A stretch of DNA of 64,000 nt, from assembly GCF_003334355.1 (NCBI RefSeq), contig NZ_QOWP01000001.1; one strand, written 5' to 3'. The translations under genes and the position numbers were made by a program. Positions 4,168 through 33,467 of the stretch are shown here, piece after piece. This DNA is from Escherichia coli (lineage in GTDB: Bacteria > Pseudomonadota > Gammaproteobacteria > Enterobacterales > Enterobacteriaceae). Within the stretch, counting starts at the first letter, position 1; each line of letters starts with the position of its first letter. A model generated the notes under the pieces. It searched no databases and had not been told where the DNA came from. It was given only the letters and a program-made list of their open reading frames with translations.

Positions 4168-5139
4168 ATGAATTTAGAAAAAATCAATGAGTTAACCGCG
4201 CAAGATATGGCGGGTGTTAATGCGGCAATCCTTGAGCAGCTTAATTCCGACGTCCAACTGATCAATCAGTTAGGCTATTACATCGTCAGCGGCGGCGGTA
4301 AACGTATTCGTCCGATGATTGCTGTACTGGCTGCACGAGCTGTTGGCTATGAGGGAAATGCGCATGTCACCATTGCTGCCTTGATCGAGTTTATCCACAC
4401 GGCGACTCTGCTACACGACGACGTTGTGGATGAATCAGATATGCGCAGGGGTAAAGCTACCGCCAACGCCGCATTTGGCAATGCCGCCAGCGTGCTGGTA
4501 GGCGATTTTATTTATACCCGCGCTTTCCAGATGATGACCAGCCTCGGTTCACTCAAAGTGCTGGAAGTCATGTCAGAAGCCGTAAACGTCATCGCAGAAG
4601 GTGAAGTTCTGCAACTGATGAATGTTAACGATCCGGACATCACTGAAGAAAACTACATGCGCGTTATCTATAGCAAAACCGCGCGTCTGTTTGAGGCTGC
4701 CGCGCAGTGTTCCGGAATTCTGGCTGGCTGTACGCCGGAGGAGGAGAAAGGCCTGCAGGATTATGGGCGCTATCTCGGCACTGCTTTCCAGTTGATCGAC
4801 GATTTACTCGATTACAATGCCGATGGCGAACAGTTAGGTAAAAACGTCGGCGACGATCTGAACGAAGGAAAACCGACGCTGCCGCTGCTGCATGCGATGC
4901 ATCATGGCACACCAGAACAGGCACAGATGATCCGTACCGCCATCGAACAGGGTAACGGTCGCCATCTTCTGGAACCGGTTCTGGAAGCAATGAACGCTTG
5001 TGGATCTCTTGAATGGACGCGTCAGCGCGCCGAGGAAGAAGCAGACAAAGCCATCGCAGCGTTACAGGTGCTCCCGGACACCCCTTGGCGAGAAGCACTC
5101 ATCGGCCTCGCGCACATCGCTGTTCAACGCGATCGTTAA
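4168..5139 (+). CDS. ispB: Octaprenyl diphosphate synthase
   Basis: 323-aa ORF with two polyprenyl synthase Asp-rich motifs (LLHDDVVDESDMRRG and FQLIDDLLDY). Confidence 0.95.
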   Translation: MNLEKINELTAQDMAGVNAAILEQLNSDVQLINQLGYYIVSGGGKRIRPMIAVLAARAVGYEGNAHVTIAALIEFIHTATLLHDDVVDESDMRRGKATANAAFGNAASVLVGDFIYTRAFQMMTSLGSLKVLEVMSEAVNVIAEGEVLQLMNVNDPDITEENYMRVIYSKTARLFEAAAQCSGILAGCTPEEEKGLQDYGRYLGTAFQLIDDLLDYNADGEQLGKNVGDDLNEGKPTLPLLHAMHHGTPEQAQMIRTAIEQGNGRHLLEPVLEAMNACGSLEWTRQRAEEEADKAIAALQVLPDTPWREALIGLAHIAVQRDR

Positions 5140-5693: not shown

Positions 5694-6953
<1,260 letters not shown>

Positions 6954-31074: not shown

Positions 31075-31559
31075 GCTCTGTCCCAGCGCCGCCTCCTCAG
31101 AAAAGAGTCGGCGCTGAAATTCTCCTTTCTTTCTGGAAAGCGCCTCGCATAATCTGAAGAAAACCAATGTAATACGCTCATCTGGATTGTTACCGGTAGA
31201 TGCCCGGCGTATAGCTGATTCCATTATTCAACGCAGCGCCATATAAAGGGACAGATAATGGAATCGCTCTCAGAGAGAACCTCAACAGGCTACCAGCAAA
31301 TCCATGACGGTATTATTCACCTGGTCGATAGCGCCCGGACGGAAACGGTACGTAGCGTTAACGCGCTGATGACCGCGACATACTGGGAAATTGGCCGACG
31401 AATTGTCGAATTTGAACAAGGTGGCGAGGCCAGGGCTGCGTATGGTGCGCAGCTAATCAAGCGACAATCAAAGGATTTAAGTCTAAGGTATAAGCGTGGG
31501 TTCTCTGCAAAAAACTTACGCCAAATGAGGCTTTTTTACCTCTTTTTTCAACATGTTGA

Positions 31560-31663
31560 AATTCGCCAGACAGTGTCTGGCGAATTAACACCATTGGGAA
31601 TTCCGCAGACACCATCTGCAGAATTCCCATCGGCAAAGATTTGGCAGACGCTGTCTGCCAAAT
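31560..31663. repeat. Three tandem palindromic units at a 39-bp period inside the yhcG remnant
   Basis: Read directly: AATTCGCCAGACAGTGTCTGGCGAATT (31560-31586), GGGAATTCCGCAGACACCATCTGCAGAATTCCC (31596-31628, imperfect), ATTTGGCAGACGCTGTCTGCCAAAT (31639-31663). Confidence 0.8.
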
Positions 31664-31697
31664 TGAGAGGCTGTTTGATATTTCCACAGCTTTTGTA

Positions 31698-31726
31698 TTG
31701 CATCTCCTATTTTCGGTTTGTATATT
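31698..31726 (+). promoter_or_regulatory. Near-consensus sigma70 promoter for the orphan ORF (TTGCAT-N17-TATATT)
   Basis: -35 TTGCAT 31698-31703, 17-nt spacer, -10 TATATT 31721-31726; AAGGA Shine-Dalgarno at 31741-31745, 8 nt before the ATG at 31754. Confidence 0.6.
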
Positions 31727-31753
31727 CATGCAAATAAACGAAGGAAAGTTGCC

Positions 31754-32059
31754 ATGATTTACATTGAACAGCTTGAATTAATCCATAAAAGTGGTGATGT
31801 GTTGTATCCAGTAAAAATAACCAGAAAATCATCAGGAAAAACTGCCTTCCACCTTGTTCCATTCGGCTTAAATAAGACTCACGACCTTCTAGAGGTGGAA
31901 GATGCTTCAGAAGCAATTCGGCTGGTGATTGATGAACGTCATTCCATTCGCTGCAGTACACTTACAGCAACTATTACGAATAAAAAGGGCAAGCGAATTA
32001 AGCGGACAGGTATATACAGTATCAAGGGTGTTAACATAAAAGAATACAACGTCAGGTAA
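31754..32059 (+). CDS. Hypothetical protein, 101 aa, no recognised family
   Basis: ORF MIYIEQLELIHKSGDVLYPVKITRKSSGKTAFHLVPFGLNK...KKGKRIKRTGIYSIKGVNIKEYNVR in an AT-rich segment with good promoter and RBS; basic C-terminal tail, no signal peptide or TM segment. Start chosen at the Met with the RBS; the track ORF begins 12 codons upstream. Confidence 0.55.
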   Translation: MIYIEQLELIHKSGDVLYPVKITRKSSGKTAFHLVPFGLNKTHDLLEVEDASEAIRLVIDERHSIRCSTLTATITNKKGKRIKRTGIYSIKGVNIKEYNVR

Positions 32060-32101
32060 TGGCACAGAGCGGTCCGTCAGTTCAGGTTTGGCTCTGTGCC
32101 A
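32060..32101. other. Perfect 11-bp-stem inverted repeat with 20-nt loop immediately after the orphan ORF stop
   Basis: tggcacagagc ... gctctgtgcca; no flanking T-run on either strand, so not a canonical intrinsic terminator. Confidence 0.5.
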
Positions 32102-32134
32102 AAGATGGGTCAGGTCACACCTGATCTAATAAAT

Positions 32135-33467
<1,333 letters not shown>

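Follow-up and report, generated by a model that had tools for sequence, protein, structure and literature searches.

Palindromic DNA within a coding sequence may be a by-product of the peptide that it encodes or may itself be what selection maintains. This question is raised by three tandem palindromes in a truncated copy of the gene yhcG of Escherichia coli, which lie in a 64,000-nucleotide (nt) stretch of contig NZ_QOWP01000001.1 that was analysed as a whole (the window). YhcG combines an N-terminal domain, DUF1016_N (PF17761), in which the encoded motif falls, with a downstream PD-(D/E)XK domain, YhcG_C (PF06250). Comparison of homologous loci demonstrates, as far as sequence can, that intrastrand complementarity is the conserved property of this element and that the peptide I-x-Q-T-x-S-[GA]-[EKQ] is its translation. 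We consider it probable that the element is a hairpin or cruciform under selection at the level of the nucleic acid, with template switching helping to match its arms.

Three in-frame palindromes in yhcG

A repeat search located three 27-nt units at 31560-31586, 31599-31625 and 31638-31664, spaced 39 and 39 base pairs (bp) from start to start, and all three are in frame within the open reading frame (ORF) 31258..31737 that holds the yhcG remnant. The exact 39-bp period and the in-frame palindromes described in a first-pass annotation of this DNA were thus confirmed by repeat search, arm pairing and ORF translation (Table 1). Tandem Repeats Finder did not detect the array because its units are only 74% identical to unit 1. 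A core common to the units exists as that annotation claimed, but it is CAGAC...GTCTG, preceded by C or G, and the compensatory changes, which are real, fall in the three base pairs between this core and the ATT/AAT ends. With at most one mismatch, the core GCAGACNNNGTCTGC occurs in the window only at this array (0.16 occurrences expected). Folding of 31545-31680, proposed earlier as a check, gave structures far more stable than those of 200 dinucleotide shuffles, none of which was as good as the real segment (RNA, −62 versus −32.0±3.5 kcal/mol, z −8.6; DNA, −39.3 versus −15.2±2.5, z −9.6).

The three units are likewise present in the intact E. coli alleles L002 and K-12-like L003, and window positions 31499-31663 are 100% identical to the intact yhcG of L002. 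By this allele comparison, the array is ancestral to intact yhcG and not a product of the truncation. Palindrome 3 has 15 consecutive paired positions outside a 3-nt loop in intact alleles, and 18-bp arms in allele L004. An antisense ORF of 90 amino acids (31457-31729, minus strand) mirrors the motifs as IWQTASAK, ILQMVSAEF and IRQTLSGEF because the DNA is palindromic; it does not point to a gene.

Spread and copy number in the YhcG family

The DUF1016_N family comprises 24,516 cluster representatives at E≤0.001. The comparison covered 80 loci from species-representative genomes (40-98% identity), including Burkholderiaceae, Acidobacteria, Verrucomicrobia, Planctomycetes, Bifidobacteriaceae, Propionibacteriaceae, Chloroflexota, Cyanobacteria, Flavobacteria and Pasteurellaceae, together with viral and metagenome loci. 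About 100 YhcG homologues (36-98% identity), from several phyla including Actinobacteria and Proteobacteria and from phage contigs, carry 1-4 palindromes in the homologous loop-coding segment. In all groups among the 80 loci, the segment flanked by the conserved motifs RGFS and PWS(H/A)Y encodes 1-4 copies of I-x-Q-T-x-S-[GA]-[KEQ]-[SFL], and the DNA of every I-x-Q-T-x-S copy reads ATT NNN CAGAC(N) N (N)GTCTG N'N'N' AAT. The element consensus is 5'-R ATT NNN CAGAC RSY GTCTG N'N'N' AAT Y-3', with arms of 11-15 bp and a 3-nt loop, and its position and codon phase are identical across phyla in the genome, viral and metagenome loci. Perfect arms of at least 10 bp are found in 70 of the 103 loci in which the loop region is covered, and nearly all the remainder have a palindrome broken by one or two mismatches. 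The loci total 448 kb and contain 85 perfect palindromes (arm ≥11, loop ≤5), of which ∼70 are this element, 5 are an Escherichia copy beyond the yhcG stop codon and ∼10 are background.

One copy is the norm in the family, as in Salmonella, Citrobacter and Kluyvera, while the Escherichia YhcG lengths of 349, 362 and 375 residues correspond to one, two and three units. The array is therefore a diverged in-frame multiplication, as first proposed, and the comparison with intact yhcG suggested in order to decide whether one or three copies are ancestral shows a single copy as the family norm and three in intact E. coli alleles. Additional tandem copies, for which a 39-bp spacing is usual, are confined to particular lineages and decay faster.

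Complementarity exceeds what the peptide requires

The contribution of the peptide to the pairing was assessed in 79 unique, peptide-defined instances by keeping the peptides and redrawing synonymous codons from the usage of the same ORF (1000 draws). The instances contain 866 Watson-Crick pairs compared with 490±14 under this null (maximum 533), an excess of ∼26 standard deviations; each instance has on average 10.96 of 13 pairs, where the peptide alone supplies 6.2. The pairing is achieved with rare codons that are chosen exclusively in the motif, high-GC genomes included. Serine is encoded by TCT in 78 of 79 instances (14% elsewhere in the same ORFs), isoleucine by ATT in 54 of 56 (against an ATC-rich background) and Lys/Glu/Gln by NAA in 64 of 65 (42% of these codons end in A elsewhere in the same ORFs). 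Threonine is ACA or ACG in 101 of 102 instances, with one ACT, whereas ACC and ACT make up 43% of the other threonine codons in these ORFs.

Covariation is free at the three pairs that separate the core from the ends (GTG/CAC, TTC/GAA, CGC/GCG, CCG/CGG, TGG/CCA, TTG/CAA, CTC/GAG, GCG/CGC, TCG/CGA and TGC/GCA), and perfect but differing triplet pairs are combined within one gene (CGC/GCG with TGG/CCA, GTG/CAC with CTC/GAG, and GTG/CAC with TTG/CAA). Among 102 distinct 33-mers pre-selected for at least 9 of 12 pairs, double-sided changes occur at 10 of the 12 stem pairs, with 170 double-change cells compared with 61±5 in shuffles.

The core itself is also replaceable. Eight alternative cores encode unrelated peptides. 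Cores in which both sides have changed together are CCGAC/GTCGG in Phycisphaerales L052 (Ser TCT to TCG together with CAG to CCG; C-P-T-x-S-G-K), GAGAC/GTCTC in L064 (I-S-E-T-G-S-R-E), CAATCG/CGATTG with 14-bp arms in L150 (AIRQSAIDEL), GAATCA/TGATTC in L151 (NSESLIRKS), GAGAAG/CTTCTC with 14-bp arms in L153 (PIGEKPSHQL), CAGATG/CATCTG in L155 and L059 (AISQMASAKF), CGCAA/TTGCG in L067, and GGAATC/GATTCC and CCAATC/GATTGG in L057 and L077. The L150 palindrome was predicted from its peptide before the DNA was retrieved. The earlier suggestion of selection beyond the coding of Q-T-x-S is upheld, with much greater weight than the three units alone could give it, in that intact orthologues show no non-palindromic synonymous codons and base changes in the core are matched by the partner base.

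A copy of the element also exists outside the coding sequence. In intact Escherichia yhcG alleles, a fourth, non-coding and perfect palindrome, GAATTCTGCAGACAGTGTCTGCAGAATC, follows the stop codon at a distance of 14 nt. It is in frame with yhcG, and TTTCAGCG lies just before it, which resembles the in-gene F-Q-R context. Alleles differ in this post-stop copy by a double compensatory change (CTG/CAG versus CTC/GAG), and the copy matches in-gene copy 2 of the same allele. The protein cluster P0023 reads through into it.

Arm evolution and template switching

Rates were expressed as mean pairwise differences, with 4-fold sites taken outside the loop. For the copy-1 arms and 4-fold sites, respectively, they are 0.006 and 0.335 in a Paraburkholderia clade (15 loci), 0.030 and 0.576 in a Burkholderia clade (11 loci), and 0.100 and 0.444 in single-copy Enterobacteriaceae (7 loci), so that the copy-1 arms change 4-50 times more slowly than synonymous sites. 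The 3-nt loop of copy 1 is fast-evolving in two of the three clades (0.203 in Paraburkholderia and 0.418 in Burkholderia; 0.095 in Enterobacteriaceae), and the copy-2 arms differ by 0.053 and 0.165 in the two clades that have a second copy. Copy 2 retains the same two mismatches through eight species, from which it follows that mismatch correction is slow. On these rates the copy-1 arms are under strong purifying constraint, since they change too slowly for homogenisation alone and as would be expected if single mismatches were deleterious.

Quasi-palindrome template switching (the Ripley model) is known to create and maintain perfect inverted repeats (PMC5941160, PMC8794818, PMC8604942). During replication, it would copy one arm onto the other, giving double changes in one step, and could extend arms into flanking coding sequence; selection for pairing would then freeze the arms. 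Its signature, a clustered change that makes an arm the reverse complement of its flank, is present here. In unit 3, the left arm AAAGATTTGG (K-I-W) equals the ancestral coding flank CCAAATCTTT (A-K-S-F) when reverse-complemented. This arm arose beside a deletion of 27 bp by comparison with Pseudocitrobacter, and the arms of one E. coli allele measure 18 bp.

The rival explanation that survives best takes template switching as sufficient: a chance quasi-palindrome in a mutation-tolerant loop, without function, would be kept perfect by this process alone, and conservation of the core would reflect protein-level selection on Q-T-x-S. The mechanism is established, perfect inverted repeats are conserved in Proteobacteria (PMC5941160, PMC8794818, PMC8604942), and the growth of an arm into ancestral flanking code looks mutational rather than selected. 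The lack of a G·T bias among stem mismatches, the near-perfect palindromes retained in gene remnants and the pairs supplied by the peptide alone are also in its favour. However, homogenisation alone would allow paired changes at an approximately neutral rate, and none of the three clades shows this. The slow correction in copy 2 is a further difficulty, as are a constrained class of loop sequence, on which template switching imposes nothing, and the persistence of the palindrome across phyla at 36-40% protein identity, also where Q-T-x-S has gone. We rate this explanation as unlikely. With the known template-switch-maintained repeats, the yhcG element shares concerted arms, clustered changes, arm growth into the flank and occurrence in E. 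coli coding sequence. It differs in being fixed at one homologous site across phyla, in having arms slower than synonymous sites and in its constrained loop class, and these differences suggest selection on top of a mutational mechanism.

DNA or RNA, hairpin or duplex

Stem mismatches were used to compare DNA with RNA. At stem pairs k=2-12 (1122 cells), there are 14 G·T and 17 A·C mismatches; at k=1 the counts are 18 and 25 and there is no covariation, for which reason the loop is defined as 3 nt. In 102 instances, the loop has a 5' purine in 101, a G/C centre in 99 and a 3' pyrimidine in 100. This loop class, R-S-Y, is its own reverse complement, and the position outside the stem is likewise R...Y. 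Many of the covariations are swaps of C-G to G-C, which have no route through G·U. A hairpin or cruciform in DNA is favoured over a hairpin in mRNA, clearly if not decisively, because the constraints are strand-symmetric, including the R-S-Y loop, and G·T is tolerated no more readily than A·C. Of the original proposal of a DNA or RNA structure, the constraint at the nucleic-acid level stands, and the RNA version has become the less likely one.

An mRNA hairpin in yhcG could nevertheless act as a cis-regulator that limits translation, sets mRNA half-life or binds YhcG for autoregulation of a toxic nuclease. The element is always on the transcript of the same gene, stable RNA hairpins are predicted, constraint in two of three clades falls on the stem and leaves the loop free, and the tandem RNA hairpin repeats of type III toxin-antitoxin systems provide a precedent in that they neutralise nucleases. 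None of this accounts for the strand symmetry of loop and flanks, for which RNA offers no reason, or for the C-G to G-C swaps and the tolerance of G·U no greater than that of A·C, and ribosomes would unwind a hairpin in the middle of a coding sequence. No Rfam family was matched (Rfam 15; best 10.7-16.1 bits, E 3.4-9.1, all far below gathering scores), and no terminator-like tail or intrinsic terminator-like site was found in 31450-32150. We regard an mRNA regulator as decidedly unlikely. A frameshift signal, made up of T TTT TTC upstream of unit 1 and the hairpin, was also considered and rejected, as the slippery run is not conserved in other genera.

Strand symmetry would also arise if the element were a duplex operator read by a homodimer, without any hairpin, its half-sites being symmetric to fit the same protein. 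The symmetric consensus including its centre, the conserved ATT and CAGAC blocks and the freezing of arms within clades are all consistent with such a site. Against it, 2-3 perfectly symmetric copies in a single gene carry different NNN triplets, as do Enterobacteriaceae relatives that are ∼90% identical in protein, and in some lineages the cores are wholly different with symmetry retained. Moreover, covariation is absent at k=1, as for a 3-nt hairpin loop. An operator is thus very unlikely.

Copies outside yhcG

A scan of viral sequences for the element gave 38 loci, of which ∼22 are in YhcG homologues, 4 are YhcG remnants, 2 are ordinary terminators and ∼9 are solo copies; permuted control patterns yielded 12 and 16 loci, of which 2 and 0, respectively, were fully complementary. 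Perfect consensus palindromes in viral contigs with no detectable YhcG flanks are at L084 9938-9985, L093 5813-5837 / L104 1209-1233, L095 7563-7587, L099 3424-3448, L105 8089-8113, L106 3742-3805 and L120 3207-3231. Some of them lie between genes, and the two copies in L106 are spaced 39 bp. A BLAST search of cultured phages with the 30-nt consensus returned weak chance matches only. A mobile hairpin family was rejected, the solo viral loci being too few for a dispersed element.

Palindromic elements that insert in frame are known from Rickettsia, and together with the few solo viral copies they might suggest that yhcG received a mobile palindromic element, akin to repetitive extragenic palindromes (REPs), MITEs (miniature inverted-repeat transposable elements) or Rickettsia palindromic elements (RPEs). 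This is most improbable. Site and codon phase are the same in all homologues, and the element lies inside a coding sequence, with no other copy in the window or in the 2.5-kb flanks of the 80 loci, which also sets it apart from REPs and bacterial interspersed mosaic elements. In addition, several of the solo copies are remnants of YhcG genes, and although the permuted controls indicate a low viral background, two solo matches are ordinary terminators. RPEs and MITEs resemble the yhcG element as palindromic DNA whose translation is tolerated inside a protein, but RPEs are dispersed, multi-copy and polymorphic for presence or absence, whereas the yhcG element is orthologous at one site.

That the symmetry merely follows from coding I-x-Q-T-x-S-G-E and from common descent of the three units is rejected: the back-translated peptide is partly self-complementary and the units in the window are paralogues, but the synonymous null is greatly exceeded, rare codons are used exclusively even in high-GC genomes, core swaps change the peptide and the non-coding copy remains perfect.

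The encoded loop and a possible role

Intact YhcG (L002) matches PF17761 over residues 19-184 (E 1e-41) and PF06250 over residues 208-360 (E 2.5e-56), and YhcG matches the PADLOC candidate defence family PDC-S02 (E 3.8e-136). An AlphaFold2 model of YhcG, built from a 48-sequence alignment with a mean predicted local distance difference test score (pLDDT) of 80, has helices at residues 5-54, 61-78 and 84-96 and again from 141, separated by coil at residues ∼97-140 with pLDDT 46-51. As modelled, the motif falls in this loop of low confidence, which links two helical parts of the N-terminal domain, and the peptide is a passenger. YhcG has no sequence homologue in the PDB, and a Foldseek search of the PDB with the model returned only generic PD-(D/E)XK nucleases (Card1/Can2, Bax1, EndoMS and XisH) with E values of at least 4e-3.

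A perfect palindrome extrudes as a two-fold-symmetric four-way junction, and the conserved ATT at the base of the element resembles the cleavage preference of RuvC. If the element has a function, we would tentatively guess that the structure is recognised in cis by a two-fold-symmetric structure-binding protein, possibly a YhcG dimer. The dimer would be the most economical candidate, given that the YhcG catalytic domain is predicted to be similar to archaeal Holliday-junction resolvases (PMC1189080). Recognition might serve the self-control of a potentially toxic nuclease, or provide a programmed break and exchange point. The more specific proposal that the palindrome is the cognate structure of its own protein, a cruciform that is in effect a fixed Holliday junction, has its conserved ATT where the arms branch and is bound or cut by YhcG or RuvC, appears quite unlikely.

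Several points weigh against a selected hairpin or cruciform. The pattern of free loop and frozen arms fails in the seven single-copy Enterobacteriaceae loci, where the loop (0.095) and the arms (0.100) change alike. The segment is wholly missing in some family members (P0218 and P0134) and is thus dispensable for some proteins. Protein selection on Q-T-x-S in most lineages, combined with efficient reversal by template switching, could freeze synonymous sites. Codon constraints partly shape the mismatch statistics from which RNA and DNA were compared. The paired fraction in the covariation set, 90.8% of cells and 23-43% once the partner is slid, is biased by the selection for at least 9 of 12 pairs, a bias from which the 79 peptide-defined instances are free. 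A cruciform with 12-bp arms is energetically hard to extrude in vivo. Finally, the link to the activity of YhcG itself is speculation.

Recombination at the element

Divergence among E. coli alleles is ∼33% over a 200-bp patch bounded at its end by the right arm of the last hairpin, compared with 3-13% per 60-bp window elsewhere, and variants in unit number have their junctions at hairpin ends. The helix encoded upstream of the hairpins (codons ∼83-100, window 31504-31557) occurs in two forms, NLRQMR.FYL.FQ and NLWQ[FI][KR].FY[IL]CFQ, both of which are found in Escherichia, Salmonella and Citrobacter and are the source of the ∼33% patch in E. coli. In viral contig L113, a 100-bp YhcG remnant containing two hairpins and ...ARNFYEIEA is directly repeated (4703-4802 and 6025-6124), and the repeats flank a 1.3-kb cassette of two small genes (176 and 126 amino acids) next to a tyrosine integrase. 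The arrangement suggests that the hairpin region either received an insertion or was duplicated. Judged from these junctions the site is recombinogenic, which does not imply that recombination is its purpose.

In the window, position 31663 closes both palindrome 3 and the homology to intact yhcG. The earlier idea of a recombination hotspot that created the truncation is consistent with this coincidence, which is an association seen in one event. The break would fit a hairpin-associated endpoint of illegitimate recombination, and the element that it left in the window is a relic. The right junction does not coincide with the post-stop palindrome, as was considered, but lies ∼15-18 bp past it.

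The truncated allele in the window

The gene order in the window is gltB, gltD, truncated yhcG and a small orphan ORF, followed on the opposite strand by nanQ(yhcH)-nanK-nanE-nanT; E. coli B has the same order. The region is matched in 4328 of 5426 complete E. coli genomes, 720 of which have the truncated arrangement, and in most other matching genomes the match ends at window 31663 (query base 584), within full-length yhcG. PGAP labels the remnant 'DUF1016 N-terminal domain-containing protein, missing C-terminus'. Homology to intact loci returns at ∼32134, just ahead of nanQ. Upstream, yhcG directly follows gltD (31075-31257), and the K-12 block gltF-yhcA-yhcD-yhcE-yhcF is missing, as it also is in L002; K-12-like L003 has yhcD, yhcE and yhcF upstream of yhcG.

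Table 1 Features of the yhcG locus (window positions unless an allele is named; GC, guanine plus cytosine)
Feature	Position	Strand	Description
5' yhcG remnant	31258..31663	+	Codons 1-135, DUF1016_N part only
Palindrome 1	31560..31586	.	AATTCGCCAGACA G TGTCTGGCGAATT; 13-nt arms 31560-31572 / 31574-31586, 100% complementary, 1-nt centre; encodes (E)IRQTVSGEL
Palindrome 2	31595..31629	.	TGGGAATTCCGCAGA CACCA TCTGCAGAATTCCCA; 15-nt arms 31595-31609 / 31615-31629, single mismatch 31604/31620, 5-nt centre; encodes IPQTPSAEF
Palindrome 3	31639..31663	.	ATTTGGCAGAC GCT GTCTGCCAAAT; perfect 11-nt arms 31639-31649 / 31653-31663, 3-nt centre; encodes IWQTLSAK(L)
Left junction	31663..31664	.	GCCAAAT/CTTTCC in intact alleles, GCCAAAT/TGAGAG in the window; homology to intact yhcG ends here
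Foreign block	31664..32131	+	468 bp, low GC; replaces yhcG codons 136-375, the 3' flank and the post-stop palindrome
Orphan 101-residue ORF	31754-32059	+	PGAP 'transposase'
nanQ (yhcH)	32135..32599	-	Convergent neighbour
Post-stop palindrome	L002 4321-4347		Also in L003, L004, L005, L014 and L026; absent from the window

In E. coli the foreign block is single-copy and is found only at the yhcG locus; 717-726 of 5426 genomes have it. Its segment 31668-32072 shares 85-86% identity with DNA that adjoins lambdoid prophage genes in Enterobacter and an integrase at icd in Yersinia, and in both genera the homologous DNA extends further left. The orphan ORF is 82-89% identical to ORFs that border the prophage-like DNA in these genera. 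From these matches, the allele in the window joins yhcG to part of a prophage-like element, and the outer end of hairpin 3 is one of the endpoints.

The 'transposase' label of the orphan ORF looks unfounded, no Pfam or NCBIfam model having been matched. A transposase aimed at the hairpin was rejected, as the ORF has no family match, is single-copy and always at this locus in E. coli, and elsewhere sits at the edge of prophage-like DNA. The array had also been suggested to act as a structured leader or a protein-binding array for the orphan ORF. This idea is not supported, the array being ancestral yhcG coding sequence. The ORF comes with an upstream block of its own (31668-32072), whose counterparts in Enterobacter and Yersinia are without the array and have no yhcG nearby. 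The promoter proposed for the ORF was not recovered either, a simple scan giving no promoter-like site in 31450-32150. Right after the stop codon of the ORF, at 32061-32100, is an inverted repeat with 10-bp arms, GGCACAGAGC...GCTCTGTGCC, without a T run; its first half belongs to the stretch common to Enterobacter and the window, of which 32072 is the last position, and its 3' arm is outside that stretch.

Comparison with known systems

The closest known kinds of element are the template-switch-maintained inverted repeats discussed above and palindromic coding repeats, namely RPEs and palindromic amphipathic repeat coding elements (PARCELs). PARCELs are likewise tandem in-frame dyad-symmetric repeats, with both strands encoding similar peptides, variable copy number and horizontal spread. 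They are set apart as arrays of 25-residue amphipathic domains in membrane or surface proteins, unrelated in sequence, whereas the yhcG unit encodes 13 residues, is usually single and is in a nuclease loop.

The attC sites of integrons share conserved complementarity, conserved outer triplets, variable paired inner positions and recombination junctions at the element. They are 57-141 bp, imperfect and non-coding, with extrahelical bases and GTT core sites, and are used by the integron integrase; the yhcG element ends in ATT/AAT, has bulge-free stems and totals 25-31 bp, and no integrase gene is present among features within 3 kb on each side of yhcG in E. coli. A palindromic site inside a coding sequence that is conserved across phyla and constrains codons is provided by parS in parB/spo0J. 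However, parS is read as a duplex by ParB and its positions are conserved, whereas the yhcG element covaries. The RNA repeats of type III toxin-antitoxin systems (ToxI-like) are tandem direct repeats of ∼36 nt upstream of the toxin gene that form RNA pseudoknots. They are similar in having tandem units of similar length tied to a nuclease gene, but are not palindromes in a coding sequence, and the yhcG element is single as a norm, with evidence that points to DNA. Arrays of clustered regularly interspaced short palindromic repeats do not correspond to 27-bp units with 12-bp spacers in an in-frame coding sequence for which one copy is the family norm.

Significance

The literature on yhcG and DUF1016, as searched, does not mention the palindrome. 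From the closest known kinds the element differs in that it is orthologous across phyla, under strong constraint at the nucleic-acid level and tied to one nuclease family. The peptide motif of DUF1016_N is a translated DNA palindrome, which is a caution against reading motifs in disordered loops as protein function, and provides a clean natural case in which, across phyla, amino acids are set and codon usage is overruled by selection for nucleic-acid structure. The element is also a test bed for separating homogenisation by template switching from selection. For annotation, it accounts for the 349-, 362- and 375-residue variants of YhcG, for truncated 'DUF1016 N-terminal domain-containing' pseudogenes and for the mirror-image antisense ORF.

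The element also gives a first concrete and testable handle on YhcG/PDC-S02, an uncharacterised candidate defence nuclease present in most E. coli. If the palindrome were indeed the cognate DNA structure of its own protein, the gene would hold a built-in switch for self-control or a programmed break that drives exchange of its N- and C-terminal modules, and the element would amount to a DNA structural signal that runs through a coding sequence and has been kept across bacterial phyla.

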